A DNA stretch of 64,000 nt from Candidatus Bathyarchaeota archaeon (GCA_963733095.1 CAVTBV010000013.1:384001-448000), one strand, 5' to 3'. Positions 24,427 to 43,994 are shown, counted from the first letter of the stretch. A program made the numbers and translations. Notes: generated from the sequence alone by a model not told the origin.

Positions 24427-24828
24427 CTATGCTAGTTTTTTGCTACCTTGTCCAGGTGAGGCTTGGAAGACTGCGTCCACTTTTATTATGCCAACACTTT
24501 TTATTTTCATTTTCGAGGTTTCCATACTCTTCTTTGCGAAGTCATCGAAAATTGGTCCACTTGTTTGGAAACCGCCGAATGTTCCCTTTAATTGGTAGCC
24601 TGTCATTGGTCCTTTGAACACAGCAATAGCAACTTGCTTGTTCTTTTCAAGGTTCTCCTTTGTTTTTATGATGAAAACTTCTGCGAACGCAATAGTTTCG
24701 GGGTCTACTGCTACAAAGCTCCACATTGGAACTACGTTTGGAATGCCTTTAGCGTCTACTGTTGCTATCATTTTCGCTGAATCACTTGCACTTAAAACAT
24801 CCATTACTTCTTTAGGTATACTAACCAA
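24427..24828 (-). CDS. Pyridoxamine 5'-phosphate oxidase-like FMN-binding protein
   Basis: IATVDAKGIPNVVP...KTKENLEKN...GYQLKG...SPG. Confidence 0.88.
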   Translation of the reverse strand: MVSIPKEVMDVLSASDSAKMIATVDAKGIPNVVPMWSFVAVDPETIAFAEVFIIKTKENLEKNKQVAIAVFKGPMTGYQLKGTFGGFQTSGPIFDDFAKKSMETSKMKIKSVGIIKVDAVFQASPGQGSKKLA

Positions 24829-25145
24829 AAATCACACATCCTATTAAGGGAAACGACTGTAAAAGTCTAATAAACTTTTAGGGAATTTGAATAGAAAGTA
24901 GGCAGGCGTAAGTGTGTGTGGTTAGTCTGGTGGGGATGTTTGAAATTGACCCAACCCGCACTTCCTTGCTTTATTTTTTCAATACATTGAGTTAGAGTTA
25001 ATGTGTGTGAAGGCCCGAATTTCCGTTTCTGCGAATTATTGATGAGAACACGATTAACCCCAATGTCCATCCGCATTGTGAGTGCCTTCTAATTCGGGTT
25101 AAAGCTTAACACATTGCGAAGTAATAGAGGAAAGAAAGTCAAGCT

Positions 25146-26366
25146 CTAGCGTTTTTGATGCTTTCTAAAAAGCAAAACTGATGTTATAACAACTGCTAAC
25201 AGAATTATAGCAATGAATACTACTGTTGAAGTTGGGAACGACTCGGGGCTGTTGTCGTTAGGATATATATCGTTATACTGTGTAGCGGTGTTGCCAGAAA
25301 TTACGCCACCACGTCTGTTAAATGTGCCAGCATTATATACGCCTCCCCCAACTTCAGCTTTATTGTTAGAAATTACAGCATTTTCATACAAGCTAAAATT
25401 GCCATCAGGATAGTTGTATACCCCGCCCCCATAGGTAGCTTCATTATTAGAAATCATACCACCAGACATGCTAAAGATACCACTGTTAGAAACACCACCA
25501 CCTGATTGCATTAAATTCCCGCCTTCATTGTTGGAAATTTCACCGCCCGACATGCTAAAGATGGCACTGTTTTGCACTCCCCCGCCATCGTTATTACTGA
25601 TTAAACCCCCAGACATGTTAAAAGTGCCATAGTTCCAGCCCTGGTTATACGTACCGCGGTTATACACGCCAAAGCCTGTGTTGTTGGAGATTTCACCGCC
25701 AAACATACTAAACGTGCCGTACTCCATGTTGAACACAACACCACCACTACCACCATGACCAACTTTGGAAGTGTTATTGGAGATTTTGCCACCATACATT
25801 TCAAACCTACCACTATTAACCACACCATCACCCAAAATATTACCCGAAATCTCGCCATCGTACAGGATAAGTGTGCCACTTACATTAACACGCACAAGCT
25901 TGTTCCAAGCAAGAGGATAATTTCCACAAGTCACAGCAACACCATCAATCCTTAACACCCCACTACCCTCAACAATAATAACAGCATCAGAAAAACTAAC
26001 AGGAATACCATCCTCATTTCTAACAAGCTCTCTATCCCCCCCGATCAATTTGAAAAATTTAGACGTACTTGTCAAGGTTATGTCTTTGTTAGCAGCAATA
26101 ACAAGTTGTTCTGTAAGTGTAATGTCGTTATCAAGAGCGATAACTGTAGGTTCTACAGCGTTACTTACAGCATTTCTAAGTTCTATCTCGTTACCAACTA
26201 TTCTGTCCGATGTAGGGTGAGCAGTTGTTTGACCTGCAACTGGAGACAAAAAAACACCAAGAAAAGATGTTGCAAATAACAAAACAAGCACTGTCGTCAA
26301 AACTTTTGCCAAATAGTCCTGTTTTATCAACCCTTTTGGTCTTCCAAAGACATTAATGCTATGCAT
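25146..26366 (-). CDS. Cell-surface beta-helix protein with GGGVYN / F-x-M-x-GG-x-ISNN repeats (cargo)
   Basis: Signal peptide, repeats, ESFPT-TM-basic C-terminal anchor. Confidence 0.85.
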   Translation of the reverse strand: MHSINVFGRPKGLIKQDYLAKVLTTVLVLLFATSFLGVFLSPVAGQTTAHPTSDRIVGNEIELRNAVSNAVEPTVIALDNDITLTEQLVIAANKDITLTSTSKFFKLIGGDRELVRNEDGIPVSFSDAVIIVEGSGVLRIDGVAVTCGNYPLAWNKLVRVNVSGTLILYDGEISGNILGDGVVNSGRFEMYGGKISNNTSKVGHGGSGGVVFNMEYGTFSMFGGEISNNTGFGVYNRGTYNQGWNYGTFNMSGGLISNNDGGGVQNSAIFSMSGGEISNNEGGNLMQSGGGVSNSGIFSMSGGMISNNEATYGGGVYNYPDGNFSLYENAVISNNKAEVGGGVYNAGTFNRRGGVISGNTATQYNDIYPNDNSPESFPTSTVVFIAIILLAVVITSVLLFRKHQKR

Positions 26367-26407
26367 GATTTGCTCAAGAATTCAAGGCCTTGAAATGATA
26401 TAAAAAA

Positions 26408-26435
26408 CTATTCGTCAAACTTTCTTGACTAAGAC
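26408..26435. repeat. Palindromic site CTATTCGTCAA-ACTTTC-TTGACTAAGAC (11-6-11)
   Basis: Seen directly; extends as a ~40-bp near-repeat of 39167-39206. Confidence 0.8.
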
Positions 26436-26540
26436 AGAGCTAACAATTAGAACATAAGTCAAGGCATCAACGTCTAACCTTCATTGTGAATATCTTCTGA
26501 TTAGGGTTTCAGCTTAACAGTACCTAGAGAGGAAAAAAGT

Positions 26541-27686
26541 TTGTCAAAACCGCATAGCCGTGAGTTAGTCTTCATTGCGGGTTTGCATCGGCTTGATGCT
26601 TCCAACAAGAAGGCAGTTTTCTATTTGATGAATACTAGCCGGAATCGTAATCGCTGGGGAGTCACGCAGAAAGCGCTGGATGAGGCTTTGCCGTCGCTGT
26701 TAAAGAAGCCTTTGGGCATGGGTAAGGACTATAAGCTGGGGCATTTTGCAGACGATGAATGCATGAATGTTGGGTTGTTTTCGGCTTTTGAGAATAAAGG
26801 TAACTATGCATTGGGCACCGTCGACATAACAGATGATAAAGCCTTAAGCGATGTTGAAGCAGTCGAAGCCGTAACAATCCTCGAACAAGTCTTAGGCTAC
26901 GCATGGCCCAACTACAACTTGAGAGCGATTTGCCGCACCATCCCAATGGATAACTTGCAAGAACGCATAGACATCGCAACTAAATCGACAGGTCAACGCA
27001 AAGTTAAACCAATGCAGGAAGCCGAAATCAGCAAAGACGCATTCGCACCAGTAAACTTTGACCTCTGGAAGAACGTTGTGCACGTTGCAGTTGCCGATGA
27101 GGCAGGCATGAAATCAGCACATAACATACTTCAGCTCCAAACTGAAGCCGCTGGCAGAGATCTAGGTCGCATGGAAAACCTCGACATCAAAGACATTGCC
27201 GAAGCCTGCACCGAAAAAACATCCAGCACCCCATACGTGGATTGGGCAGCAAAATCAAGCGGCATAAGCACAAACGACCCATTCGACGCTATCATTCCCG
27301 CAATCGATTACATCCAGGGAAAAGGCTGGCCAGTTGACTTCATGGCATTGCACCAAACAATCTACAGCAAATTCATCCGCAACACTTACGTCCGAGAATT
27401 GGTTCATGCGGGCATTGCAAGTTTGGGTCCAAACGGCGGCGCCTTCACATTACCAGGTTACCCAACCGTTAAGGTTGTCACAGACTATGCATTAACAGAA
27501 ACTCCGGATGGCACTCATGGTCCACTGATCGGCAGTTCAGTTGCTCCAGGCTTGGTTTTCGGTGAAGGCCCAACAATGGCAGCACAGTACAGAGACGAAG
27601 CGAAAGGCTTTGACGGCTACATTATCCGCAAATGGCAAGAGCCAAAAGTAGTCATACAAGACGCTATCACAAAAATCTGCACCTAA
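26541..27686 (+). CDS. Major capsid protein (HK97-like) fused to a prohead-protease-like N-terminus
   Basis: N-terminus (NRNRWGV...GH...VG) is protease-like; the remainder resembles HK97 MCP (E-loop KVKPMQEA, MALHQTIYSKF, TLPGYP, EPKVVIQDAI); correct position before the connector. Confidence 0.7.
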   Translation: MSKPHSRELVFIAGLHRLDASNKKAVFYLMNTSRNRNRWGVTQKALDEALPSLLKKPLGMGKDYKLGHFADDECMNVGLFSAFENKGNYALGTVDITDDKALSDVEAVEAVTILEQVLGYAWPNYNLRAICRTIPMDNLQERIDIATKSTGQRKVKPMQEAEISKDAFAPVNFDLWKNVVHVAVADEAGMKSAHNILQLQTEAAGRDLGRMENLDIKDIAEACTEKTSSTPYVDWAAKSSGISTNDPFDAIIPAIDYIQGKGWPVDFMALHQTIYSKFIRNTYVRELVHAGIASLGPNGGAFTLPGYPTVKVVTDYALTETPDGTHGPLIGSSVAPGLVFGEGPTMAAQYRDEAKGFDGYIIRKWQEPKVVIQDAITKICT

Positions 27687-27718
27687 ACCCTTCTTTTTTT
27701 CATGCAATATCTAATCAG

Positions 27719-27754
27719 TCAAGCTTAGGTTTTTTGATACCTGAGTATCATAGC
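27719..27754. repeat. Cargo left-border motif, copy 1
   Basis: TCAAGCTTAGGTTTTTTGATACCTGAGTATCATAGC, about 29/37 identical to 42101-42137. Confidence 0.65.
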
Positions 27755-27815
27755 AACAGAGAATAAAGAAAGAAGCAAAGGCGTGATTGTCCACCAATTT
27801 AACTTAACTCGATTA

Positions 27816-28571
27816 TCAAAGAAAGTTCTTTGTAATCGCTGTTTGCCCAGCAGTTGCGTTAACGGTAAAGGTTGTAATGTAGTCTGTTTTTATCGAAATG
27901 TTGCCTGCTGTTGGACCCAAATAGTAAGTTACTGTGATGTTATAGGTATGCTCATTTATCAATACAACCGAATAATCTCCGATAGCACTGTTACCACCTA
28001 TGATACCACTTTGCGGAGGATAATTGTAAGGAAAACTAAAAGAATTGTTAGCACCTGTTTGAATGTCAGTGAATTGAATTCTAATCAAACTTGATGGGAA
28101 GGGTTGGGATAAAGGTATACTGTTTATTTTGCCTGATACAGTTATGCCAGCACTTAGTGGATAAACGAAGACAACAAATGTAGCGTTCTCTGCTTGTCCA
28201 TTGTCTAATGCTGTTACAGTGACTGTGTAGTTTCCTGTTGGTGTTGAATCAGGCACATAAACGGTTAGAATACTGGTGAAGTTTGATATTCCTCTCGCAG
28301 GTTCAAAGGTGCAGTTGACACCGCTTGAACCAGTATTACTGCTTAGCGTTATATTTTCAGCTTTACCTATTGAGGTTAAGTTGACTTGGGCTTGTAGATT
28401 GTTTCCTCGAATAACTTCTGTTTGGTTTAAAGACACATTTACGCTAAGTTTTGTAATTGACTGATCAGTTGTAGGTTGACGATAAAAAACAATCAATGAA
28501 GCAACCACAAGCACAACTATGATTACCGTAACGACCATTAAATTTCTACGCCTAGTTGAAGTTTGAACCAT
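27816..28571 (-). CDS. Membrane-anchored Ig-like surface protein (cargo)
   Basis: N-terminal TM, TPTGNYTVTVTA Ig/CARDB-like strand, many N-x-S/T sites; antisense to the viral operon. Confidence 0.8.
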   Translation of the reverse strand: MVQTSTRRRNLMVVTVIIVVLVVASLIVFYRQPTTDQSITKLSVNVSLNQTEVIRGNNLQAQVNLTSIGKAENITLSSNTGSSGVNCTFEPARGISNFTSILTVYVPDSTPTGNYTVTVTALDNGQAENATFVVFVYPLSAGITVSGKINSIPLSQPFPSSLIRIQFTDIQTGANNSFSFPYNYPPQSGIIGGNSAIGDYSVVLINEHTYNITVTYYLGPTAGNISIKTDYITTFTVNATAGQTAITKNFL

Positions 28572-28604
28572 GCTTAGTACTGAGAAATTAAAGCCAATAA
28601 AAAA

Positions 28605-28655
28605 CTATTCGTTAAAAAACTTGACAGTTGGCAGTCAAAGTTTCTTGACATGATA
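28605..28655. repeat. Tandem palindromic sites (CTATTCGTTAA-N5-TTGAC and GTCAA-AGTTTC-TTGAC)
   Basis: Seen directly between the cargo promoter and the connector gene. Confidence 0.7.
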
Positions 28656-28686
28656 ATAATCAAAGATTTGGCAGGAGCAAATTGGT

Positions 28687-29034
28687 TTGTCTATTAGGTA
28701 TGGTTGTTTGGTTAATGTTCAGGTTATGGCAGCCGTGACTGTCAATGATGGCGTGAGTTCTGCCGATCCTGAGTTAACTATGTACTTGGGTAAGGCCTGC
28801 GATTTCATTAACGACTCCCTCAAGGGATTTGTTTCGGTGCCGCTGGATCCTGTGCCTGCAGTTGTCGATACGATTGCAGAATTTTATGCTTCGGGACTCT
28901 ATCTTGCCCGAAACAATCTTGCTGACGGCCAGACACAGCATCCCAACGTGGTCTTGGCAGAAAAGAAGCTCTCTGAGTATAGGGCGAGCCTTCGCCGGAG
29001 CTATAAACTGTTCAGTAATTCTGATGAGGAGTAG
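28687..29034 (+). CDS. Head-tail connector (gp6/gp15-like)
   Basis: 115 aa, helical (LTMYLGKACDFIN...VPAVV); synteny after the MCP. Confidence 0.6.
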   Translation: MSIRYGCLVNVQVMAAVTVNDGVSSADPELTMYLGKACDFINDSLKGFVSVPLDPVPAVVDTIAEFYASGLYLARNNLADGQTQHPNVVLAEKKLSEYRASLRRSYKLFSNSDEE

Positions 29035-29500
29035 TGGCGCCTTGTCTGTTCGGGTTAGGGTGAATTTCACTAGGGTCGAGAGTCTAGTCAGTGGGGTAGC
29101 TGCTCGGCAGAGGCTTGTTTTTGGTGAATGGCAGCGACAGGGATCCGCCGAGGCTGAACATGTGTTGCGGGCTAATACGCCTGTTCGCACGGGGTTTCTG
29201 CGTGATAGTATCGTTAAGCAGTTGACGCCTTCGGGCTTCACAGTTTACCCCACAGCATCCTATGCATCAGCAGTAGAGCATGGGACTGGTCCGCACACGA
29301 TTTTTCCTTCACATGCTAAGGTTCTCTGTTTCAGGACGGGCAATCTTGGTTGGGCGTTTGGTGAAGGCGCAATATTTGCTAAGCGGGTTGAGCATCCGGG
29401 GTTTGCTGGTCGCTTCTTCATACGCAAAAGCCGTGATGAGTTGCGTGGCAAGTTAAGAGATTTGTATTTGATGCTTTGGATTAGGATGCAAAATGAGTAA
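29024..29500 (+). CDS. HK97 gp10-like neck protein
   Basis: TPVRTGFLRDSI, YASAVEHGTGPH and HPG...FF motifs. Confidence 0.85.
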   Translation: MRSSGALSVRVRVNFTRVESLVSGVAARQRLVFGEWQRQGSAEAEHVLRANTPVRTGFLRDSIVKQLTPSGFTVYPTASYASAVEHGTGPHTIFPSHAKVLCFRTGNLGWAFGEGAIFAKRVEHPGFAGRFFIRKSRDELRGKLRDLYLMLWIRMQNE

Positions 29501-29915
29501 CGGAATACTAGCTATAAAGACGGCTGTTAAGAGTGTTCTTGCGGACGCTTCTTTAGGTCAGGTTTCTAAGTGGCTCTCAGCTGAGCCTTCGCCTTCTGCT
29601 TATCCTGGATTATGTTTTGGGTGGGTTGAGTGGAGCGGCGGTCCAGTTGTTCAAGCAAATTTTGACCGCAAAAAAGCGGTTGATGAATTCTTCATAGTCA
29701 TAATTACGAAGAACGCTGATGCCGATCAAGCAGAAAGTGACGGATTGTCACTAGCCGAGAAGGCTGAAGCTTTGTTCTGTGCTGATCGTAAGTTGGGTGG
29801 TGCCGTAACTGATAGTTTGGTTACGTTGCGTGAGAAGCAAAAAGTGTTTGACGGCAAGTTCAGCGTTAATGCTGTTCGTTTGACGCTACAGACTTGGCGA
29901 TGGATGACTGGTTAG
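29493..29915 (+). CDS. Tail terminator-like protein
   Basis: 140 aa; synteny between gp10 and the tail tube; DRKLGG motif. Confidence 0.6.
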   Translation: MSNGILAIKTAVKSVLADASLGQVSKWLSAEPSPSAYPGLCFGWVEWSGGPVVQANFDRKKAVDEFFIVIITKNADADQAESDGLSLAEKAEALFCADRKLGGAVTDSLVTLREKQKVFDGKFSVNAVRLTLQTWRWMTG

Positions 29916-30044
29916 CGAGCACACCACACTATGTAGGACCTTCCTCGATACTAACGACTGGAATCAATCATCTTACATTAATTTTAAAGCGATAGGTCAA
30001 TTGTAAGTAAATTATATAACCACACAAACCCATTAGTTTCTAAT

Positions 30045-30848
30045 ATGCGTAGTCTGGGCAAATATCTGTTGTTATGCTTAGTTATTCTCTCAGCATCTAG
30101 CCTGTGGATGGTAAAACTCTCTGATGCTCAAGCCACACCTAATCCTGCTGCTACATTTGTCACTGGTGTTATATCCTCAGACACGACATGGACCAAGGTT
30201 AATAGTCCCTACAATATAACAGGCGCGGTAATAGCAAAAGGCGTAACTGTGACGATTGAACCAGGAACGGTTATTTATGTCAATGCTTTCGAAGGATTAG
30301 GCGTAATTGGGACACTTCGCGCAATAGGCACAAGTAATGAACCCATTACCCTTAACGGAGACTTTCGCATGAGAGCACCCGTTTTCGGAAGCAGTTCTTA
30401 CAACGGAATTTTATCGTTTAGCAATGAAAGCCAACCATGGGATGACAAAACAGGAACAGGATGCATCATCGAAAACACGAACATTGTTTCCTTGAGCGTC
30501 TATATTCATAATGCAACCATAAAATTGAACAATAACGTTTTCAGCGGGTACTACGAATACCATAGGCTTTGGATAGAAGGTGGTAACTCGATAGTCACCA
30601 ATAATAGAATATTAGCGGATACAATCGGAGCGGATAATAATTTTCCCCAATCTGGCAATAATACAGTTATAGGTTCTGGCGGCGTCAGTTATACACCGAA
30701 TCCAGTCAGTTATACTCCGAATCCAACTGCAACTCCTTCCCCTTCAGTTCCAGAGTTTTCTTGGTTAACAATCCTACCCATGCTTCTCGCCATACCAATT
30801 GTTCTGGTCATAATCAGAAAAACCGTTTCTAGAAACATTACTTTGTAG
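30045..30848 (+). CDS. Secreted beta-helix surface protein with PEF-type anchor (cargo)
   Basis: Signal peptide, DTTWTKVNSPY...IEPG, C-terminal VPEF-TM-RK; own TATA box. Confidence 0.85.
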   Translation: MRSLGKYLLLCLVILSASSLWMVKLSDAQATPNPAATFVTGVISSDTTWTKVNSPYNITGAVIAKGVTVTIEPGTVIYVNAFEGLGVIGTLRAIGTSNEPITLNGDFRMRAPVFGSSSYNGILSFSNESQPWDDKTGTGCIIENTNIVSLSVYIHNATIKLNNNVFSGYYEYHRLWIEGGNSIVTNNRILADTIGADNNFPQSGNNTVIGSGGVSYTPNPVSYTPNPTATPSPSVPEFSWLTILPMLLAIPIVLVIIRKTVSRNITL

Positions 30849-30979
30849 GATTGAAGCCAGCTTAAAAAGTAGTTTGGCATAAGGCGATTTTAGCTAACAC
30901 ACCTGTTAATCGATTATTTTGGTAACTGCCATTTTGGCATTACAACTAAAAATTTAGAAATTTTGGAGGAAAAAAAATT

Positions 30980-31380
30980 ATGTCTAGTCCTGTCCCTGTT
31001 TTGGGTAGAGATGCCCGTTTAATAAAATCCAGTGTAGCCATCGGTTATGGCAAAAGCATTAAGGTATCCGCGGATGCTGAAGAAATAAAAGTTTACAGTA
31101 TGGATTCTTTGCAGCCTGCTATCACTGCTGCTGGGAAGCAGTCTTTTAAGTGGTCCTGTGATCGCCTTTTCACCGATAAAACCTATTTGGCGCTGCTGAT
31201 GGCTGGCACCAAGTTTGATTTGGTGTTTGCTCCCGAGGGCGATGCTGAAGGCGATACGATTGAGACTTGGAAGAACTGTTCAGTATTTTGCATTGTGAGC
31301 GTTCAGCCGGCGAAGACGACGGTGTTCTGGAAAGCATCAGTGGTTCTGCTGAAACTGTAGAGTTCCCAGCTCCATCATAG
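30980..31380 (+). pseudogene. Tail tube protein, frameshifted
   Basis: After WKNC the protein-like continuation SILHCERSAGEDDGVLESISGSAETVEFPAPS* is in another frame, ending at 31380. Confidence 0.65.
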
Positions 31381-31386
31381 GAGAAA

Positions 31387-31980
31387 TTGTTCTTGTCTGA
31401 AAAGAAGATGAGTTCTGCTGCAGCTGCCAAGTTGCCTGAGAATGAGGCAAAAATTGCAGAGTTTAAGAGGCGTGCTGAAGCTGACGATGCCCGAAATGAA
31501 GCAGTTGCTAAGCTATTCGATCCTGTTGCATTGCTGCAGCGAGCTGGCCAAATCCATGAAGCTCAACATCCAACTTTGGGCTTGATTCGTTATGGTGAGT
31601 TGGTGATCGCTGACTCGGAAATCATCAATAAATGCAAAAACAAAGCAGATCGCAACGCCATGAGCATCTACTTGATGCTGAAAAAAGCCTATTCTAACCT
31701 ACCTGATTATACCCCTGAGAATATTAGCGAATTTAACTGTTCTTTTCCAATGTTGGAAGCTTCAGAACTGATAAAATTCCTAAATGAACAGCCGGGTTTT
31801 TTGTTAACCAAATCGCCAACTGGATCAAGCACAGACTCAGATGCCGAAAACATCGGTTTAATTCTCTCTACTTTTCCCCAATTCAATTTCAGTAGCTTGC
31901 GGGAGCTCACAGTTTTTCAGTTTAACTATTTGGTCGCCTGGGCAAGACTGCATCAGGTTAAGGTGAGGCAGATTGGCTGA
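31387..31980 (+). CDS. Tail assembly chaperone G/GT, now fused in one frame
   Basis: Lies between the tube and the TMP; slippery G GGT TTT at 31794-31800; T-like C-terminus ...LRELTVFQFNYL. Confidence 0.75.
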   Translation: MFLSEKKMSSAAAAKLPENEAKIAEFKRRAEADDARNEAVAKLFDPVALLQRAGQIHEAQHPTLGLIRYGELVIADSEIINKCKNKADRNAMSIYLMLKKAYSNLPDYTPENISEFNCSFPMLEASELIKFLNEQPGFLLTKSPTGSSTDSDAENIGLILSTFPQFNFSSLRELTVFQFNYLVAWARLHQVKVRQIG

Positions 31981-33313
31981 TTCTGACATAGAAATCAATC
32001 TAGATCTAATCGATAATGCTAGTAGCCAGTTAGCGGAAGCTTCATCAAACATTTCCAGTAGCCTAGATGAGGTTTCAAATTCGAGTAGTCAATTGGCTTC
32101 TGCCTCTGAATCGACCGTGCCGCCTTTATCGGAGAGTGAGCAGGCTCAGATGCAATTGGCTTCTGCAGCGGTGACGTTGAAGGATGCACAGGCAACTTTG
32201 ACATCCACCACTGAGAACCTGAATGCCGCTATTCGCAAGAACGGGTCCGATAGCGAAGAGGCTGCTGTTGCTCTTCGGGATTTTACAACTGCCCAGGAGA
32301 ACGTTAAGGATAGCCAAAGTGAGCTTAATTCGATTACCAAGCAGAGTTCAGGTTCTCTAAAGGGATTTGCTCTTGGTGCTTCTGGAGCTGCAACTGCAGG
32401 CTTTAGCCTGTATAGTAGTTTTGACCGGATTGAGAAAGCGGAGCTTGCAGTTGATCGAGCTAATTTGCAGGTGCGCACTTCAACTAAGGGGGTCGAGGAT
32501 GCCCAGCGTAACCTCAATGAAGCCGTTGTTGAGCACGGGGCGAATAGTGCCGAAGCTAAAGCCGCGTCAGAGCAGCTAAGCATTGCCCAAGAGCGTCTTG
32601 AGATAGCCAACGAGCGAGCTAAGCAGTCGCAGGACAACGTCAATCAAGCAATGATGACCAGTGCAATACAGATTATTCCTTCCGCCATCACCATGGTCGA
32701 TAGTCTGAGTAGAGCTTGGAAGAATTTTCCCGAAATGACAGGCGTTCTAAAGACTCTTGGCACCAACGTTTCTGACGTTGGTAGCAAGGCGACTCTTGCA
32801 GCTATTGGGGTGGGTTCTTTTGTCGGTGGCTTCACGTTGGGGGTTACGGTGATTAAGCAGTTTGGCGACCAGTTGGGTCCGGTTGGACGGGCTCTAATGG
32901 TTGTTGTTCCCGCAATTATTGCGGCTGCAGCTGCAGTTTGGATGCTTCAAGAAGGCATAACCTTGGGCGTTGCCACCGCGGCTTTGGTTGCTTCTGGTAT
33001 TGCTGTTGGCGCTATGGTTGCGAACCTTCAGAATTACGGAAACGTCATTGGCTTAGCAGGAGGCGGAGTCATAACCAAGCCCACATATGCTTTGGTTGGG
33101 GAGGCTGGTCCGGAGATTGTTATGCCTCTTTCTCAGTATGAAAGCCAACGTAGCCAACAAACCACTCAGCCTAGCACCATGACAGGGCCTAATGTCACTT
33201 ACCTAACTTTCAATCAAAACATAAATGGCAACATCGAGACCGAGGCAGATGAGGAACGCCTCGCCCAAAAAACCATCGACAAACTGGATTACGAATTAAC
33301 CAACAGGAGGTAG
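31973..33313 (+). CDS. Tape measure protein (short, 446 aa)
   Basis: DIEINLDLIDNAS start, Ala-rich coiled coil, TM region, LAGGGVITKPTYALVGEAGPE motif. Confidence 0.88.
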   Translation: MADSDIEINLDLIDNASSQLAEASSNISSSLDEVSNSSSQLASASESTVPPLSESEQAQMQLASAAVTLKDAQATLTSTTENLNAAIRKNGSDSEEAAVALRDFTTAQENVKDSQSELNSITKQSSGSLKGFALGASGAATAGFSLYSSFDRIEKAELAVDRANLQVRTSTKGVEDAQRNLNEAVVEHGANSAEAKAASEQLSIAQERLEIANERAKQSQDNVNQAMMTSAIQIIPSAITMVDSLSRAWKNFPEMTGVLKTLGTNVSDVGSKATLAAIGVGSFVGGFTLGVTVIKQFGDQLGPVGRALMVVVPAIIAAAAAVWMLQEGITLGVATAALVASGIAVGAMVANLQNYGNVIGLAGGGVITKPTYALVGEAGPEIVMPLSQYESQRSQQTTQPSTMTGPNVTYLTFNQNINGNIETEADEERLAQKTIDKLDYELTNRR

Positions 33314-33317
33314 TACA

Positions 33318-34252
33318 ACGGCAACTCTGATAGTGGACAATTTGAATAAGACGGTGGATGACTATCAAGGTTTTTGGAGCGATAACCCTTACGAAACCGG
33401 CATGGGCTGGCAATTCAGAATCGTATCTCCTACCACATTCTCAAGAATAGTCACTAAATTAAGAGCTATTAGCGAAGGCTCAACTCCTGCTTCTGGAAGC
33501 TTAATTGCCTACATTTACTCTAGCGATGGTTCTTTTCGAAGTACAGCCGCCTATGCCGACGCTTTGATTGCAGCAAGCCTAAACAGCATTGATATCGGGA
33601 ACCTTAATTCAAGCTGGTCGGAGCAAGACTTCAACTTTGACGACGTCGAGTTGGAGCCAGGTATCTATTTTTTCTGTCTCAAAACAAGCAGCTACGTTAG
33701 AAATGATGGTTATCTTCAAGTGGCGATAACATCGGGTTCGTCGTCTCTTGTTGGTTCTTGGACTTATTGGGATAGCGATGGAGCGGGCGGGGGGTATTGG
33801 TATTCGGAGGATGAGGACTGATGAGTTGGTGGGCGGGAGTCTTTGGCATCTACGGATCACAGCAGCCAGTCACCTCTTGGAGCATCGGCGGCGTCGATTT
33901 GCCTTATGGACCTGAAAGCATCCGATTGCCCGCATCAGCGCAAAAAGACAGCGTAAATGTTACCTCTTCGCTGCCAATCAATATCTACGACGGCCTAAAA
34001 GAATGCACACTCACATTAACAGGAACCATAGCCAACCCAACATTGACTGACGCCGAGCTCTGGAGCAAAATCATTGTGCCCCTACAAGCATTGATTGGAA
34101 CTGAAGTAACCCTCTTGTGTCCCATAGTTGCGCTGGTAGGCGAGTATGGTTTTGACAGCTTCAACGTTGAACGCGATACAAAGTTGGCGATTTACAGGTA
34201 TACCATAAAGTTGAGCAAGGGCTCACTGAATTTGGTGGAGGCGACTTATTAG
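33318..34252 (+). pseudogene. Distal tail (Dit-like) protein with an N-terminal beta-sandwich; probably one split gene
   Basis: Track ORFs 33333..33821 and 33821..34252 join as YWYSEDED / SWWAGVFGIYG; the in-frame codon after the AGGAGG RBS is ACG (33318). Confidence 0.5.
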
Positions 34253-35891
34253 ATGGGTTGGGTTGCGCTTTGGTATAATCCAGACACAGACGAAGAGGGG
34301 CAGTTTGTTGGCGCAAAAATTGAGCAAATTTTAGAGGAGATCACTCCCGAGAGCTATGCTACCTTCAAAGTCCCCAAAACCTACGAGTACCTAAACATAG
34401 CAAGAGACATCCGCTATCCAAGCAACCAATACTACGCGGGCTTATGGTACCCCGATCCAATGCGATCCCCAATTTATCAAGGCACCCTTGTCGGAGCGCA
34501 GCTTGAAGGCAAATTCATTAAATTTACGATTGTGGATGGGGCAGTCATAAAACTGGACCGCTCCGAGCCCTACACTGGCGTCTTTGATGAAACCCCAGCG
34601 GTCGATATGCTCTTAGAAATATTTGAGGATCTGGACTTGGATGTCTCAATTGGAGATTGTCCCTCAACAGAGATGTCTGTTGTTTTCTACAACGCAAACC
34701 CGCTTGACATTGTCAAGTTTGTTGCTGACGCTTTGGGCTTGGAGTATTGGGGGGATGGATATCAGACAATTAACATCGGTTCGCGAGGTCTTAATCAATG
34801 GTATCCCAATTACCAGCGGGTTTTCGCTGACACCAGCGGGGTAGATTCCTCGAAGAATTATGATCGGGTGATTGTGCGGGGCGTGGATTTGATGGGTCGA
34901 CATATCCGTGGCGTCGCAGGAGAGGGATCAAACGTTAAGACGACTTAGCGAATCTAACCCCTGCGAAGCGGAGGTTTTAAACAATATGGCAGCCAAAAAA
35001 CTCGCTGAACTGAACAATTCCTCGATTGGGGCGCCAATCTCATTTCTAAATTCTGACTCGTATGATTGGCGGGTAGGCGACTACGTTTATGTTTGGCGAG
35101 ATGATTTGCTTATTTTCTCAGATCAAAACTCCTCGCGTATAATGCAATTAACGCGAACGCCAACCAAAGCTACATGCCAACTGGGACGTCTCAAAGAGTC
35201 GGTAGCCAAGAATATTGCGGATCTTCGGCGTTGGGAAGAGCAGGGCATCTATTTACCTGGCTGCACGAGCTGGACCATAAACTTACAGGACCTCGTGGGA
35301 TTCTACCATCTAAATGAAGGCTCGGGAGTGGTTGCTCGAGATTCGAGCCCACGAGTTGATCCGCAAGATGGAAACATTGTTAACTGTGCCTGGCAGCAAA
35401 ATCAATACCTAAAATTCCTCACATTCAACGGCGGATCGTCTTATGTTGATATTGGAGACTCAATCACCTTCCAGTCAACAGGCAAATTTAGCGTTGGCGG
35501 CTGGATAAGCCCTTCAGTGCAAGACGGAAATAGCCGTAACATAATCCATAAAGACGGCCAATTTACCCTCAAAGTGGTAAACGGAACCGTCATTCTCATA
35601 GTCTACGATTCAGGCGGCACTCCTCACATTTTCACGACTGCGTCAATTGTAACGGTGGGCGGTCGCAACTTTGTCATGGCAACATACGATGGGACTACCA
35701 TCCGAATTTATCGAAATACCAAAGTTGTCCTCGAACAAAACATCGGCATGTCAATTCACTCATCGACAAACAAAGTCTACATTGGCATGGGTTTTCAGGG
35801 TGCCCTTGGCGAAGTGATGCTTTGGCAGCGCTGCCTATATGATCAGGAGGTGGTGGAGCTTTACTTTTTTCCCCTTGTCCGAACTGTATAG
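34253..35891 (+). pseudogene. Baseplate hub/Tal-like protein with C-terminal LamG domain, frameshifted
   Basis: YDRVIVRG hub-like motif; +1 shift near 34943 (NVKT / LSESNP); LamG FNGGSSYVDIG...ATYDG. Confidence 0.7.
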
Positions 35892-36282
35892 CTGGGTAGA
35901 AGTAGAAGTTGCAAACTCCACCCGCCATTTCCCCTATACCTACCAGCGCCTAATGCGAATTCGGCATCATCAATATCCGCCATAATGGAATCCGTTGGGA
36001 ATGCGTCACTTGCAGTACCCAAGTACTATTGCTCCATGAGCAAAAAGGCACATTCATACAACCAAGTTGCCTCCTACAACCCCAACGACAGCTTGGTCTT
36101 CGATGTAAATCCATTCAACCGGGAGATATTCCAGTAATGCCCATAACACATCATACCCAAGCGGTAACTCCTGGAAAGATCCCATGGCAATCCTACAACG
36201 AAAACCATGACTATAGCAACTTAGATGCTTCAACCCTCAACGGATCCACAAAAGTCAGATAATCGAGGAAGCACAAGAGGGT

Positions 36283-37216
36283 ATGGGCGGCGGAGAACCA
36301 GGCGAAACAACCATCATTGACAAACCTACTGGTGTTCAGTTTTTCAAGGGCATGATTCTTCTGTGGTCGGGTAAAATAGGCGATATCCCCAACGGATGGC
36401 ACCTATGCGACGGCACAGAAGGGGACTCCAGACTTAACGGATCGATTCATCAAAGGTGCCTCAAGCGACTCTGACATCGGCGACACAGGCGGAAAAACAA
36501 CCCTTCAGCATAGCGAATTAGATATCGAGGTCAATGTTGCCGACCATTCAAGCCACATCCACACTTATAGCGATGTTCTAGAGCATACTCACCCAATAAC
36601 TGACCCTGGACATTCGCACAACGAAGGCTACAGAAACTCGGGCACAGCAGGTACAGCAGGCGTTCAAGGTTGCAGTTCAGCAAACAACGCCTATATCGCA
36701 AACGGCATTCAAGGTAAAACAACAGGCATCACAGTTGACAACCCAGCTGGCGCCCTCGCTCAAGGTGAAACCGACGGCACAACCCTAAATCATGAGGTCA
36801 GCGTAGAGGTTGATTCGCTTAAACCGCACGTGTGTGTTGAGCCGCCCTTCTACAAATTAGCATTCATCATGTTCATTGGAGGTGAAAATTTGACAGATTG
36901 CATCATTAGAGTGTTCTGTTCTCTCCCATCTAACACGGGCGTGGAGGTTGGAGATGATACAGTTGAGCGAGGAGTATATGACGAATCAGGCGACGGATCG
37001 CAGAAAGTCCAGACGTTTGTAGTGCAAAAAGGCTCAATTCTAAACTTGCAGCTCTACAACAACTCTGGAAGCGACAAAGTCCTTGGCTTCGAATATGAAA
37101 GCGCAGAAGATGGACGCACACACGGAGAAGGGATCACCTCGATACCAAATGAAAACGGTAGAACCTTCAAGTTTGTTGCTGATCAGAGCGGAGATCTCTG
37201 GATATACGAGGATTAG
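36283..37216 (+). pseudogene. Tail-collar / short fibre protein, frameshifted
   Basis: KGMILLWSG..DIPNGWHLCDG; one extra G in 36421-36424; then TPDLTDRFIKGA...HxH repeats...PPFYKLAFIM continuing to 37216. Confidence 0.8.
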
Positions 37217-37226
37217 GTGACTTGGA

Positions 37227-38045
37227 ATGCCTGTGACTCTACAATTCACTGCAGATGTTTTGGAACCCGACCTCTACAATGACGTGCAGGGGTTGCCCGA
37301 TCCCTTTGGCATGGCTGTTATGGTTGGGATAAGCAACACCTACACCGCTGGGCTTTATTTCAGGGTTAGGCTTGTTTCACCGCCCGCCGACTACACAGTC
37401 TACCAGGTTAACCTTGGATTGCTCAACGCCGGAAGCTCAAGCATCTACTCCCCAATTTTCACAAGAAACATCCCAACATTAACCGCTGGCGAATACGACG
37501 AAACCGTAACCATGAGACTCGAAGCATTCTCAGACGCAGGGTACTCGGTTCCATACGGGTCAAAAGACCTCTCAGTTAATATTCACCACTTCGACCACTT
37601 AGATCCTGCTTGGACAGTTATAGAGCACGCTGATTTCAATGGAAGCATGAACGGCTGGAGCCTCTACTCAGCCCAAGGCGGCTACGACACAACATACTTC
37701 TACTCCTCACCCTCATCAGTCCGCGTAACATATACAGGCAGCTCAAACTATGGACCAGGCTACCTCAAAAAAACAATCACCGTCGGCGCTTACTCAAAAG
37801 CACGGCTGGTTATCCATCACTATGGCAGAAGTGGAAGCGACTACCAAAACAACGACGACTTCGAACTCACTGTCGCGGGGGTTCTTAAAAAGCAAAGACC
37901 CCTACCGTTACCCTACAATCAATGGAACCGCTTATGCTTTAACATGCCAGTTAACCAATCGTCTGAAATCTACTTCTGGATAGGCGGCCACCTCTACCAT
38001 TATCCCATGTATTACGTCGACGAAATCTGGGTCATCGCAAAATAG
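37227..38045 (+). CDS. Putative tail receptor-binding protein
   Basis: Intact 272 aa; aromatic-rich beta-sandwich C-domain ending YYVDEIWVIAK; last tail gene. Confidence 0.55.
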   Translation: MPVTLQFTADVLEPDLYNDVQGLPDPFGMAVMVGISNTYTAGLYFRVRLVSPPADYTVYQVNLGLLNAGSSSIYSPIFTRNIPTLTAGEYDETVTMRLEAFSDAGYSVPYGSKDLSVNIHHFDHLDPAWTVIEHADFNGSMNGWSLYSAQGGYDTTYFYSSPSSVRVTYTGSSNYGPGYLKKTITVGAYSKARLVIHHYGRSGSDYQNNDDFELTVAGVLKKQRPLPLPYNQWNRLCFNMPVNQSSEIYFWIGGHLYHYPMYYVDEIWVIAK

Positions 38046-38079
38046 CATTAAACGCTTTTGTTGGCACGTTTGCCATAAA

Positions 38080-38109
38080 CATATAGGCGCATTTGTAATG
38101 CGCTATATG
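38080..38109. terminator. Hairpin between convergent genes
   Basis: CATATAGGCGCATT-TGT-AATGCGCTATATG followed by a T-run. Confidence 0.5.
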
Positions 38110-38114
38110 CTTTT

Positions 38115-39071
38115 TTATAAGTCTGTTTGAAGTGATGACAAGACAGCAGGGTGTTTGCGTTTCTTGAAGCAAACCAGCAGACCTACACCTGCAACAGCCA
38201 CTGATACAACGATTACTATGACCAAGGTTGTAAGGAACGGCTCTGTTTTTGGTGGTTCGGGACCAGTATTAATGGTTGGATACGGTGTCAAAGTCGGCGT
38301 TGTCGGGATGCCAAAGTTAGGAATTTCGAAATCGGTTATCGGATTGACCAATGGGTGGTAGTCAATGCTTCTGTTAGTTGCCCAAGTGACTTCATCCACA
38401 TAGGGCGTGTCCCAGATTCCCAACCCAACAACTTCAGAGGCGTTTGGGTATTTGGAGGTGTAGTTGCTCCAGTAGTTCCTATCAACAAATGGTGCATCCG
38501 ATAAGTCAACAAGTGTGCCACTATCGAAGAAGTTGTTTTCAGTAATGATATCAAGCCCACCATGATTATAATCAACAAAAATTCTTGAATTCATGAACAC
38601 ATTACGCTCAACTATATTTCCCACTCCGCTACCGCCTAGAATGTGTATGCCTGCACTTTCAAAGCGGTTGCCGATGAAACTGTTATTGTTTGACGGCGTG
38701 TAAATGCCTTCCAAGAAATTACTAATTCGCAGATTCTTCACCAAGACGTTACCATAAGCATTGACTGTTTCATCATGCCCCACCAGATTTATCCCTCTCA
38801 CGTTTACTGTCTGGTTGCCTTCAAGGGTATGTCCTGCTCCGTCGATTGTAATTCCTGCTTTTTGAACTGTTATGGTGCCAAAAAAATCCACTACAAAGGT
38901 GTAGGTGCTCCCGTTTCTTTGAAGCCAAATGAAATCAGTGTCTGGTTCAATGCTTCCATCTGGCTTGATTGTTAGGTTTAGTGGTTCTTGTTCTTGCGCT
39001 TTAACTGGTAAGGCGAGGATTGAAAGAGAAACTATAAGGCACACAGTAACTAAAGCAATGCAGGCTTTCAT
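38115..39071 (-). CDS. NosD-like beta-helix surface protein (cargo)
   Basis: IKPDGSI, IDGAGHTL, NYWSNY...GIWDTPY...DYHPL; EPF-TM-KKRK anchor. Confidence 0.85.
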   Translation of the reverse strand: MKACIALVTVCLIVSLSILALPVKAQEQEPLNLTIKPDGSIEPDTDFIWLQRNGSTYTFVVDFFGTITVQKAGITIDGAGHTLEGNQTVNVRGINLVGHDETVNAYGNVLVKNLRISNFLEGIYTPSNNNSFIGNRFESAGIHILGGSGVGNIVERNVFMNSRIFVDYNHGGLDIITENNFFDSGTLVDLSDAPFVDRNYWSNYTSKYPNASEVVGLGIWDTPYVDEVTWATNRSIDYHPLVNPITDFEIPNFGIPTTPTLTPYPTINTGPEPPKTEPFLTTLVIVIVVSVAVAGVGLLVCFKKRKHPAVLSSLQTDL

Positions 39072-39112
39072 TTCTTATCTGAAAATAGTCATGAAGTTTT
39101 CGTCTTATAGGT

Positions 39113-39206
39113 ATTTTCGTCAAGGAACATTGACTAAGCACTCAACTAAAGCGGGCGGTTTTTTTAGTCAAACTTTATTGACTAAGACTAACTAAACATT
39201 AGAACA
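39113..39206. repeat. Two palindromic sites (ATTTTCGTCAA-GGAACA-TTGACTAAGCA; TTTTTAGTCAA-ACTTTA-TTGACTAAGAC)
   Basis: Seen directly between two divergent cargo genes; the second has perfect 8-bp arms. Confidence 0.8.
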
Positions 39207-39282: not shown

Positions 39283-40839
39283 ATGAAACATAAAGTGATA
39301 TTTGCCACTGTTACGGTGCTCCTAATAGTATTAGTGTCAGCAACCGCCGTTATTGTTAACAACGCACCAACCAAAAATGACTCAACCCGTGTTGGTGTAA
39401 CTTTCGGCGGAGACAATAGCGCCGACGCGAAACTGCTGATTGATAGAGTCAAAGGTTATACTAACTTGTTTGTTGTGGCATCAGGTCCTCTAGAGTACAA
39501 TAGTTCTGAATTAGAGAATACATGCGATTATGCTGTTACGTCAGGGTTAGATATCATCGTTTACTTTGGTTCCTACGAGGCGCAGAGAAATATAACTGCT
39601 TCCTTCATTGACACTGCACAAAGTCGCTGGGGAAGCCATTTCTTGGGCGTATACTATGGGGATGAGCCTAGCGGAAAAGCGCTCGATGGAATCATGCGGT
39701 TAGATAACGTCCCCAACATAGGTAATGTGTCAGTAAGCAGCCATGACCTTACCGTTAGCCAAACCTCTGGTTCAATCATGACAAGTAAATCATTCATGTA
39801 TAGTCCTGATTTTTCAGGACAAATTAACGTACAATGTGTTGACTTTGCTGCGGGGAATTCCACAATGATTAATTATTTTCCGAACGGAACAATCGCTCTC
39901 GCCAAAAACAATGAGTATTTGATTTACTTGACAAACGGAACCGTGTTCAAACAAATAAGCTTTCCAAGCGCATTTCCGAACCCGAATAATGAATCCTGGG
40001 CATCAAATGGAACTGTCCTCATTCAAGAAGGCCCGTTTCCTACTCACTCGGTTTCTCCCCCCTCATTTATAGCTGTGACGGATAGAGGCGATATTTCTCA
40101 GTTCGAACCATACCAGCAACTCTGGGATTCACGTCCATTCCAAACAACAGATGACTTATCAGCAGTAGCTACATCATATGTAAAAACCCAGCAAGCGACA
40201 ACAGATTGGATAGTCAACCAAGGCAAGGTTAACCTCTTCACTTCTGATTATGTCCTTCACTGGTGGGATTATCAGGTCGGATATGACACCGTTTTTGCTG
40301 AGCTTGGCTGGAATAACACTGCTGCGCAAGAAATCGACTTAGTAAGAGGTGCGGCGAATCTGCAGGGCAAAGATTGGGGCACAATCATAGATTGGAAATA
40401 TAATCAGCCGCCCTATTTACCCAGCGGAAATGAGATGTACAATCAAATGCTCCTGTCCTATCAATGTGGCGCTAAGTACATTGTAGTTTTCAATTACTCT
40501 GAAAACATGACTGACCCTTATGGAACTTTGCAGAATGAGCATTTCCAAGCACTTCAACGGTTCTGGACTGATGTAGTGAAAAACCCCCAGGTAGTTAATG
40601 GTGAAATCAAGTCTGAGGCAGTTTTTGTTTTGCCTAGTAACTATGGGTGGGGCATGCGGAACCCGCAGGATAGTATTTGGGGCTTATGGGCTCCAAATGC
40701 TACTTCAGAGCAAATCTGGACCCAGCTTCAAAGCAGACTTACACAATACGGCTCAAAGCTGGACATAGTCTACGACGACGCAGCTTATCCTGTTGCTGAA
40801 AAATATAATCAGATTTATTCCTGGAATCAAACAACCTAA
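39283..40839 (+). CDS. Membrane-anchored secreted protein, glycoside-hydrolase-like barrel (cargo)
   Basis: N-terminal TM; GVYYGDEP, FTSDY, AELGWN motifs. Confidence 0.65.
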   Translation: MKHKVIFATVTVLLIVLVSATAVIVNNAPTKNDSTRVGVTFGGDNSADAKLLIDRVKGYTNLFVVASGPLEYNSSELENTCDYAVTSGLDIIVYFGSYEAQRNITASFIDTAQSRWGSHFLGVYYGDEPSGKALDGIMRLDNVPNIGNVSVSSHDLTVSQTSGSIMTSKSFMYSPDFSGQINVQCVDFAAGNSTMINYFPNGTIALAKNNEYLIYLTNGTVFKQISFPSAFPNPNNESWASNGTVLIQEGPFPTHSVSPPSFIAVTDRGDISQFEPYQQLWDSRPFQTTDDLSAVATSYVKTQQATTDWIVNQGKVNLFTSDYVLHWWDYQVGYDTVFAELGWNNTAAQEIDLVRGAANLQGKDWGTIIDWKYNQPPYLPSGNEMYNQMLLSYQCGAKYIVVFNYSENMTDPYGTLQNEHFQALQRFWTDVVKNPQVVNGEIKSEAVFVLPSNYGWGMRNPQDSIWGLWAPNATSEQIWTQLQSRLTQYGSKLDIVYDDAAYPVAEKYNQIYSWNQTT

Positions 40840-41054
40840 AACCATTTGGTCTCTTAACTTTTTATTGATATCTATTCTTAGGGGTTGAAGCATTTGGACG
40901 CTTGTATCTTTAGATATGTTTTTAGGTGTTGTTTATCGGTAAAATCTTTTTTTTGGGCAGGCTGGGCTGCTGCTCTCTTCAAGCAAAAAACTTGAATTTT
41001 TATTTTTGTTTCGAACTTCTCTTTTCCGTTTGATGCTTTTTGGAGGTGATTTGT

Positions 41055-41249: not shown

Positions 41250-41276
41250 GAAGGCCTTCCTGTTTTTTTGAGTCTG

Positions 41277-42687: not shown

Positions 42688-42797
42688 TCAATCGCTTCCT
42701 CTGTTTCCAGTTGTGCTTTCTATTTCAATACCAATTTTACCCATGCTTAACATTAGGTAATGGAGTCGATAAAAGCCTATTCGTAAAGGATCCTTAA

Positions 42798-43994
42798 CTA
42801 AGCCTCGCCAAGCTTTCTTGACTGATGAGCGAATTTTCGATACCTGATTACCCCGGCAATCGCAAATATGGAAAAAAGCAAAGGCAAGATCACCAGCCAA
42901 GATAATTCTGGAACGGTAGATGTTGGGGAAGGATTGTCGATGCTGGCGCTAGTTCTAATTAACCAATTATTGCCTACCCCATTACCTCCCGCAAGCACAA
43001 AACCTCCGTCACCCTCTTGAATCACTGAATACGCTGTCGAGTTTAATGATAAACGCCACAGCAAATTTCCAGCCGAATCAGTCTTAATCAAGCTTCCAGA
43101 ATCGAAGTTGCCGCAACCTAAAGCGTATCCTCCATCACCAGCCTGAATCACCGACCAAGCTGCACCAGTATCGTATGTTTGGTTCCAAACCATTTTACCA
43201 TTCAGGTCAGTTTTAAACAACAAAACGGTATTGTTTACAGAGCCAGCCAACAAAAACCCTCCATCATCTAATTGAATAACCGAGTACGCAGCACTTTGGA
43301 TGCCATCATAAGTTTGGTTCCAGAGCAAATTGCCTAAATCGTCGATCTTCATGAGAAGAGCACTATTATTCATAAAACCTGCAGCGGCATATCCGCCATT
43401 ACTTGTTTGAACCAGCGACATAACCATGCCGTCTTTACCTTCATAGGTTTGGCTCCAAATTATATGACCAGTTAGATCAACCGCAGCCAACCAAGGAGCG
43501 CCGTTTTCGCTTCCAGCCAAAATGTATCCGTTGTCGCTTTTCTTGATTAAGCTTGATATGCTTGTGTCGCTGTAGTTTTGTCTCCACTGAAAAATGCCTT
43601 GAGAATCAGATTTGACCAAGTAACTGGAGCCGACAAGTGCATATCCCCCATCTGGCGCCTGGACAATAGAGTCAGCTCCACCCAAATTTACATTCATTTT
43701 TTCAGCAAAGTAAAACTTTTCCCATTGTTTGTCGCCCGAAGAATCAACTTTGATTAGCCAAGGTCCGACTGCTCCAATAACTATGCTCATCGCAGAACCT
43801 GCCAATGCGTATCCGCCATCGCTCGTTAGAGTCATTGCTCGAATTATTGATCCTGTGCTGTACTGCTGTTCCCATTCGATTGAAGGTGTGGTTGGAGAGA
43901 TGGCAGTGATCAGAGTTGCTTGTGACATCAAGGCTGCTAACAGTAATACTGAAATGAAAGCGAGAATAAGAGCCCAAACAAATTTTCCTCTCAT
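42798..43994 (-). CDS. Beta-propeller surface protein with PEL-type anchor (cargo)
   Basis: Repeated DGGY-LAG...WLIK-D--G---W-QTY blades; VPEL-TM-RK. Confidence 0.85.
   Translation of the reverse strand: MRGKFVWALILAFISVLLLAALMSQATLITAISPTTPSIEWEQQYSTGSIIRAMTLTSDGGYALAGSAMSIVIGAVGPWLIKVDSSGDKQWEKFYFAEKMNVNLGGADSIVQAPDGGYALVGSSYLVKSDSQGIFQWRQNYSDTSISSLIKKSDNGYILAGSENGAPWLAAVDLTGHIIWSQTYEGKDGMVMSLVQTSNGGYAAAGFMNNSALLMKIDDLGNLLWNQTYDGIQSAAYSVIQLDDGGFLLAGSVNNTVLLFKTDLNGKMVWNQTYDTGAAWSVIQAGDGGYALGCGNFDSGSLIKTDSAGNLLWRLSLNSTAYSVIQEGDGGFVLAGGNGVGNNWLIRTSASIDNPSPTSTVPELSWLVILPLLFSIFAIAGVIRYRKFAHQSRKLGEA

Follow-up and report, generated by a model that had tools for sequence, protein, structure and literature searches.

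Recurring palindromes beside a provirus remnant as probable operators of a surface-protein regulon in Bathyarchaeia

The stretch analysed here, called the window, is 64,000 nucleotides (nt) of DNA from Candidatus Bathyarchaeota archaeon (GCA_963733095.1 CAVTBV010000013.1:384001-448000, equivalent to G000:C13:384001-448000, where G000 is the archaeal assembly, of 2.84 Mb and 43% GC). From 26.5 to 38 kb it holds the remnant of a head-tail provirus, with neck/tail-completion, tape-measure and tail-fibre-like genes. In and beside this remnant are genes of putative surface proteins, with the palindrome GTCAA-N6-TTGAC close to their 5' ends. A preliminary description of the window took these palindromes for dif-like recombination sites at the borders of inserted cassettes. 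The analysis below leads to a different reading, namely that they are probably operators, of the activator type, belonging to a surface-protein regulon of about 20 promoters.

Palindromes and promoters in the window

Exact matches to GTCAA-N6-TTGAC occur four times in the window, at 26414-26429, 28634-28649, 39119-39134 and 39167-39182. These are the positions given in the preliminary description, and all four fall between open reading frames (ORFs), as stated there. The expected count is 0.11 (standard deviation 0.31), and none of 100 dinucleotide shuffles reached four. The variant with a 5-nt spacer reported at 28611-28625 is also present; it reads GTTAA-AAAAC-TTGAC and has in addition one arm mismatch. 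A right arm common to three sites was likewise recovered, those at 26414, 39119 and 39167 continuing as TTGACTAAG and that at 28634 not, and the reported near-identity of 26414-26454 and 39167-39206 is borne out by an alignment with few mismatches. The extended pattern TTGAC...ATTAGAAC is found only at these last two places in the whole genome. The earlier list can be extended by a tandem pair, 42780-42801 and 42804-42825.

Judged by promoter geometry, the sites would serve the minus-strand genes 25146-26366, 27816-28571, 38115-39071 and 42175-42687 (Table 1). Upstream of the first, the minus strand reads TTAGTCAAGAAAGTTTGAC-GAA, followed by a TATA-like box at about 26399-26407, with 7 nt from the core of the site to the box and 32 nt from the end of the box to the ATG. 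After the degenerate site of the second come GAATAG and a TATA-like box at about 28596-28605, the ATG lying 24 nt past the end of the box; here 28597-28616 is 95% identical to 26400-26419 (repeat family D14). For the third the box is at about 39104-39112, the offset is again 7 nt, and the ATG lies 34 nt past the box. The distal site of this promoter may also serve the plus-strand gene 39283-40839. The element with a CTAA-N3-TTAG core at 26433-26455 is common to 39186-39206 and to promoters of orthologues of gene 25146-26366 in genomes G048 and G070 (L138 and L142), and may be a second binding site.

The cargo genes behind the sites are on the minus strand, encode N-terminal signal or anchor segments and are not paralogues of one another. 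A406, the product of gene 25146-26366, has no match in Pfam, PHROG or NCBIfam. Its orthologues, with 76–79% identity, are found in non-viral contexts in G058, G048 and G024, and there is another in G070. In G006, G017, G041, G049, G052, G062 and G066 the wider family with GGxISNN repeats is matched dozens of times in each genome, and in G000 it has a single copy. D318 shows 30% identity to the product of a NosD/β-helix-type gene that stands behind the motif in G008, and a homologue of E518 sits in an operator-rich cluster of surface genes in G045.

Table 1. Features of the window. Bit scores refer to the position weight matrix described in the text; sites are putative operators.
Feature	Position	Strand	Remarks
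Left copy of 38-nt imperfect direct repeat	25074..25111	+	3' end of remnant Mu-F-like minor head gene (..HPHCECLLIRVQL); family D8, 82% identity
A406, 406 aa	25146..26366	-	N-terminal hydrophobic segment, GGxISNN-type repeats, C-terminal membrane anchor; slot cargo
Single putative operator, promoter of gene 25146-26366	26411..26432	-	35.3 bits; exact match and matrix
Conserved element with CTAA-N3-TTAG core	26433..26455		Just distal to the operator; sequence comparison
Right copy of 38-nt direct repeat	26482..26519	+	Just upstream of protease/capsid gene; G010 homology resumes here
B381, prohead protease/scaffold N-terminus (residues 1 to ~105) fused to major capsid protein (residues 102-381)	26541..27686	+	Deletion fusion
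C251, 251 aa	27816..28571	-	N-terminal membrane anchor; between capsid and connector genes; weak DUF4469 Ig-like match
Degenerate promoter-proximal site (5-nt spacer), gene 27816-28571	28611..28625	-	Assigned by geometry
Putative distal operator, gene 27816-28571	28631..28652	-	22.8 bits; exact match and matrix
Connector and tail module of defective provirus	28687..38045	+	phrog_5, phrog_167, HK97-gp10_like, TMP_3 and phrog_5795 matches
3' end of tail gene 37227-38045	38011..38051	+	Decayed second copy 42039-42079, 78% (family D4)
D318, 318 aa	38115..39071	-	Signal peptide, C-terminal anchor, β-helix-like
Putative promoter-proximal operator, gene 38115-39071	39116..39137	-	28.4 bits; exact match and matrix
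Putative distal operator, gene 38115-39071	39164..39185	-	32.0 bits; 48 nt from proximal site; exact match and matrix
E518, 518 aa	39283..40839	+	N-terminal anchor; divergent from D318
Putative regulon member, 170 aa	42175..42687	-	N-terminal membrane anchor
Putative tandem operator pair upstream of gene 42175-42687	42780..42825	-	Proximal 42780-42801, 13.9 bits; distal 42804-42825, 23.5 bits; 24 nt apart; repeat family D6

The motif in the genome and in related genomes

The genome contains 22 exact GTCAA-N6-TTGAC sites, of which 17 form a family with the oriented 22-nt consensus TTA-GTCAA-GAAAsT-TTGAC-TAA. A position weight matrix (PWM) was built from these 17 sites, which are themselves counted among its matches. 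At 15 bits or more it gives 38 strand-hits, as against 2–3 in three shuffles. At 14.5 bits or more there are 37 positions, on 11 of the 16 contigs and in about 20 promoter regions; they form 27 clusters, only four of which lie within an ORF of at least 150 amino acids, three of these scoring below 19 bits. The motif is not peculiar to the window; its loci are promoter regions throughout the genome, mostly intergenic and in most cases at a fixed distance from a TATA-like box. Nor do the sites have the 11-bp arms around a 6-bp spacer described there. The information content falls to background beyond 3 nt outside each pentamer, giving arms of 8 nt, and the central six positions are not free: read in orientation they are GAAAsT, with G in 21, and A in 23, 23 and 25, of the 25 strong sites.

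The arrangement of the promoters is regular. Past the proximal site, in the direction of the gene, come GAA, 3–6 nt and a TATA-like box, so that the core ends 7–9 nt before the box. A regular expression comprising the site, a GAA-like triplet, the 3–6 nt gap and the TATA-like box has 18 matches in the genome and 1, 3 and 1 in shuffled genomes, and at the loci so found the ATG is mostly 23–35 nt past the end of the TATA-like box. Twelve loci have two sites. The spacing between them is 24 nt in seven and 25, 33, 35, 45 and 48 nt in the others, and the values 24, 25, 33, 35 and 45 nt are separated by about one helical turn.

The downstream genes belong largely to one class. An N-terminal hydrophobic segment is found in 13 of the 15 assigned downstream ORFs, compared with 352 of 1450 background ORFs (24%), and one of the three matches to the regular expression that have no assigned ORF, at C1:217901, also precedes a signal-peptide protein. 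Pfam identifies NosD/β-helix domains in two of the downstream proteins, a PQQ β-propeller and a Fer4 membrane protein, and assigns no family to the rest. Among the strongest tandem sites is one at G000:C15:5695-5740 (L030), where the TATA-like box is followed by only a 6-codon ORF; the following gene, which is proteasome beta-like, begins about 366 nt farther on, and the stretch has no Rfam match.

The motif is conserved between species. The 18-mer TAGTCAAGAAASTTTGAC, allowing at most one mismatch, is present in 19 of 24 genomes of the same genus and in 1 of 16 genomes from other families of the order, while the reversed 18-mer used as a control is absent from all 41 genomes. Eleven loci in relatives, picked by the motif only, have the same succession of site, GAA, TATA and ATG, and at six of them the downstream gene is homologous to a gene of a G000 regulon protein. 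The strict 18-mer has no match in G006, G017 and G018, three genomes of the A406-family comparison that were also searched for the motif.

One member of the putative regulon is not secreted. Gene G000:C1:84442-85407 encodes a protein of 321 residues that has a Cys cluster near its N-terminus and contains three ArsR/TrmB-like winged helix-turn-helix (wHTH) domains, and it has the motif in tandem in its own promoter. Among 84 loci encoding homologues, 15 have tandem GTCAA sites upstream, 54 have GTCAT-N-ATGAC about 110 nt upstream, and 15 have neither. The GTCAA-bearing genes cluster in a quick maximum-likelihood tree, with a Shimodaira-Hasegawa-like approximate likelihood ratio test (SH-aLRT) value of 89, and their flanking genes are syntenic in G001, L062, G022 and G020. 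The motif thus keeps a constant distance to the promoters of genes that are conserved and syntenic, this wHTH gene included, an arrangement that the preliminary description had itself regarded as contrary to recombination sites.

The commoner paralogue (G000:C9:54988-55911, L129, and 53 other loci) has its GTCAT-N-ATGAC about 110 nt before the start, beside a TATTTAAATA box, which suggests autoregulation through a related but distinct operator. Because the paralogues carry distinct, related palindromes (GTCAA or GTCAT) in their own promoters, the triple-wHTH protein is a reasonable candidate for the regulator. It stays a candidate because the co-occurrence of motif and wHTH gene across genomes is imperfect, and its chance of being the regulator would be even at best. 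A sequence search of the PDB with this protein gave only a marginal MarR match (E 0.53), with no close relative of solved structure.

Probable operators of a surface-protein regulon

On the basis of their position, their symmetry and the phasing of the tandem copies, we consider it probable that the palindromes are activator-type operators of a lineage-specific surface-protein regulon, with about 20 promoters, in one genus of the Bathyarchaeia. The genome-wide distribution, the fixed promoter geometry, the class of gene and the conservation between species are seen directly in the sequence, and from them we infer that a protein binds the sites and that its effect is to activate. The preliminary description had mentioned, as a caveat, an activator operator abutting the BRE/TATA (BRE, TFB-recognition element) of the cargo gene; the distance of 7–9 nt to the TATA-like box, the 20 or so promoters and the conservation all favour that alternative over its main proposal.

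We hypothesise that the 22-nt element is bound by a regulator of the winged-helix type, acting as a dimer. The promoter-proximal copy would abut the BRE/TATA, and a second copy, usually 24 nt upstream and sometimes 33–35 or 45–48 nt, would provide a further site. The bound regulator would help to recruit TFB/TBP, and surface proteins that are secreted or anchored in the membrane would thereby be expressed. The sites in the window would then be parts of promoters of host-type surface-protein genes, lodged in and beside the defective provirus.

Such a mechanism has parallels. Archaeal activators typically bind directly upstream of the BRE, as in the cases of EarA, Ptr2, TFB-RF1 and TrmBL1 treated in PMC5512572 and PMC4158304. 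As presented in the former, the EarA sites of the Methanococcus maripaludis fla promoter, and the ara-box of Sulfolobus, are short repeated sites directly upstream of BRE/TATA, and the EarA sites are needed for activating genes of cell-surface structures (PMC5512572). EarA differs in having 6-nt boxes at one operon, as against a 22-nt dyad at about 20 promoters here. Ptr2 of M. jannaschii, TFB-RF1 of P. furiosus and TrmBL1 with its TGM site use palindromic sites upstream of BRE/TATA; according to the account in PMC4158304 they act by recruiting TBP or TFB, and whether they activate or repress depends on where the site lies with respect to BRE/TATA. The present motif differs from theirs in sequence, lineage and class of gene, and its candidate regulator is the ArsR/TrmB-like triple-wHTH protein with a Cys cluster near the N-terminus.

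Several observations weigh against operators, or against this regulator. The spacing of 48 nt between the sites at 39116 and 39164 is out of helical phase, and at 3 of about 12 proximal sites the asymmetric centre has the opposite orientation. The window is only 2.3% of the genome, yet it holds 5 of the 37 positions of at least 14.5 bits, beside viral genes. The strong conservation of the 6-nt centre would also suit a crossover region, and the genome contains 20 tyrosine-recombinase (PF00589) matches, none of them assigned as XerA; in a comparison made by eye, only 2–3 of the 20 or so loci are within 3 kb of such a match. For the A406 orthologues of G058, G048 and G070, DNA homology to the window runs from the stop codon to 3–41 nt beyond the operator, which places the site near the outer edge of a module that has changed its location. 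G005, with 9 motif matches, and G040, with 13, have no homologue of the wHTH candidate at E≤1e-20, and in several other genomes only other wHTH paralogues occur. As to the homology, an end 3–41 nt past the operator would be expected if, of the functional parts that moved with the gene, the operator lies farthest out, and the module edge may also have a role in movement. The outermost element of a promoter can simply take the form of a dyad with a 6-nt centre beside a cargo gene.

The sites might instead form an extended promoter element that defines a class of promoters and is recognised by a paralogue of TFB or TBP acting as an alternative general factor. The fixed distance to the TATA-like box, the abutting GAA(A) bases resembling a BRE, and the imperfect co-occurrence with the wHTH candidate would all be consistent with this. 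We nevertheless regard it as unlikely, given the dyad symmetry and the tandem copies at helical-turn spacing, with distal copies up to 48 nt away, which are typical of dimeric regulators and not of BRE-type elements.

Bathyarchaeia are abundant in soils, peat and sediments. Literature searches found no paper describing the motif or any regulon in this group, and little work on gene regulation. A conserved 22-nt operator would provide a handle on co-regulated secreted and surface proteins. It would also yield a candidate autoregulated wHTH family, and a simple means of annotating surface-protein genes in metagenome-assembled genomes.

The provirus slot and the possible movement of surface genes

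The provirus in the window is defective. Its protease/scaffold and capsid genes are fused, the portal and Mu-F-like genes are present only as short remnants, and no terminase was found in the window. In G010, G045, G017, G018, G041 and G071 the protease/scaffold and capsid are two separate genes, 1.3–2 kb apart. A gene of 154–163 codons stands between them in related genomes.

Comparison with G010, whose capsid protein is 97% identical, shows that homology to the window stops at 25109 and resumes at 26497. These breakpoints coincide with the 38-nt direct repeat of Table 1, a duplication of the Mu-F-like 3' end, with the palindrome 53 nt further in. Three occupants of the slot are known: gene 25146-26366 between the repeats in G000, a different 428-residue β-helix-type gene, also with an operator-like site (29 bits), in G010, and a third, signal-peptide gene in G060, which has the right repeat. 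No canonical site was seen in the 260 nt inspected at the G060 gene, a stretch that was not scanned with the PWM. In the more distant proviruses of G018, G041 and G045 and in six IMG/VR viral contigs the slot is uninterrupted. The six contigs, recovered with an alignment of three sequences after the capsid alone had found nothing, contain no site of at least 13 bits.

Because G010 and G060 have other genes in the slot, and the distant proviruses and viral contigs have none, gene 25146-26366 with its promoter is, on this comparison, a true insertion into viral genes, with the direct repeat as its borders. The earlier proposal of promoter-bearing surface-protein cassettes in the viral operon is thus supported for at least this gene, and is not supported in making the palindromes the borders. 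The slot and its repeats constitute a finding separate from the operator, and a smaller one. There is no PWM match of at least 9 bits at the 3' flanks of genes 25146-26366, 27816-28571 and 38115-39071, and no direct repeats flanking 27816-28571 were found. Further along, the tail gene 37227-38045 has a second copy of its end, with weak protein-level homology from 41941, and the two copies bracket a segment containing D318, E518 and ParDE. The last is a ParE toxin and ribbon-helix-helix (RHH; ParD-like) antitoxin pair on the minus strand, at 41277-41803.

Metagenome sequence was also compared, all of it as Logan contigs, from DNA sequencing runs (X1–X4); the best-matching DNA runs contained at most 0.24 of the sampled words, and the search for runs returned none of RNA. 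The contigs over 24800-29000 are short and none spans the region. They diverge from the window at 25100, 26400/26411, 26433, 26525 and within the protease/capsid fusion, where the points of divergence are 26841/26846. One low-depth X4 contig joins 25109 to 26633 and 26668 to 27603; the stretch between is not known, and the join cannot be read as an empty site. Joins of the type 26432 to 28632 resemble the paired operators found at other promoters. No circle, and no crossover in the 6-nt centre, was seen in these short contigs, which cannot count as absence.

The arrangement has some resemblance to the 'morons' of phages, genes with their own promoter that lie on the opposite strand among conserved virion genes and that related viruses lack. 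Here too a promoter-bearing gene stands between the Mu-F-like and protease genes and is absent in relatives (G018, G041, G045 and the six viral contigs). The differences are that the carrier is a defective provirus, that all six related viral contigs and the intact G045 provirus are without such genes, and that the promoter has the putative operator of a host regulon. The variable slot implies a fast turnover of surface-protein genes at this place, which bears on virus-host and cell-cell interactions.

These observations allow three proposals that involve recombination. According to the first, surface genes tagged with the operator would, in this genus, be mobile modules (gene, promoter, operator and CTAA-N3-TTAG element) that move between islands and the provirus slot. 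The slot would be bounded by the 38–55-nt duplication of the Mu-F-like 3' end, with three species having three occupants, and one of the roughly 20 tyrosine recombinases would carry out the exchange, at the duplicated sequence or at the outer edge of the module. If this is true, these archaea would possess a cassette system that varies the cell surface, and each of its cassettes would come already wired to one host regulon. We give it a low probability.

By the second proposal, which we consider improbable, the sites are operators first, and serve in addition as patches of homology or as secondary recombinase sites by which modules of the regulon are swapped between islands and the slot. The window and G010 share no stretch but the operator in the variable segment that the direct repeats enclose, the slot has three different genes in three genomes, and the edges of the A406 module are close to the operator. 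The divergence of metagenome contigs at 26400/26411 and 26433, on both sides of the operator, points the same way, though short contigs from paralogous promoters would look alike. On the other hand 22 nt is short for homologous exchange, the inspected sequence at the G060 gene lacks a canonical site, no joint with a clean crossover was seen in the short contigs, and the edge of a functional promoter accounts for the end of homology with no need of a role in recombination.

The third, in which XerA or an integrase would insert and excise surface-gene cassettes at the palindromes, these being Xer/dif-like core sites, is very improbable: dyad symmetry around a conserved 6-nt centre, cargo genes that interrupt viral genes, an A406 module that recurs in differing contexts and the number of PF00589 matches would fit it, but the sites are on the promoter side only, at a fixed distance from the TATA-like box that recombination does not need, are kept before a syntenic regulator gene and lie away from the window/G010 break, which is at another direct repeat. 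The dif site of archaea is likewise an imperfect inverted repeat around a 6-nt centre. In the description of PMC2958812, however, it has 11-nt arms and occurs once per genome, in the replication termination region, as against 8-nt arms and about 20 loci here, all at promoters. The pdif modules of Acinetobacter plasmids are similar in that accessory genes occur in varying contexts beside short dyad sites. Those modules are described as having Xer sites at either end. The genes studied here have dyad sites at the promoter end alone, and the borders of the only slot with traceable limits are formed by a different direct repeat.

Other features of the window may be noted briefly. A tRNA-Asn(GTT) at 13177-13253 adjoins a weak tyrosine-integrase gene on the opposite strand (13287-14720), and no second copy of the tRNA end that could form an attachment site was found within the window. 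Between this integrase and the provirus remnant is a metal/arsenic-type cluster (17829-23336) with two ArsR-family regulators, a P-type ATPase of 803 residues and a low-molecular-weight phosphatase/ArsC-like gene. A direct repeat of about 650 nt, 64% identical (47870-48526 and 53573-54218), is located within more surface-protein-like genes, downstream of the region with the palindromes. Finally, a stretch present in three copies with 87–95% identity, at 41017-41250, 45491-45622 and 46171-46407, may be a small repeated element; it includes an ORF of 69 residues, whose product is 88–94% identical to that of an ORF adjoining the surface-gene cluster in G045.

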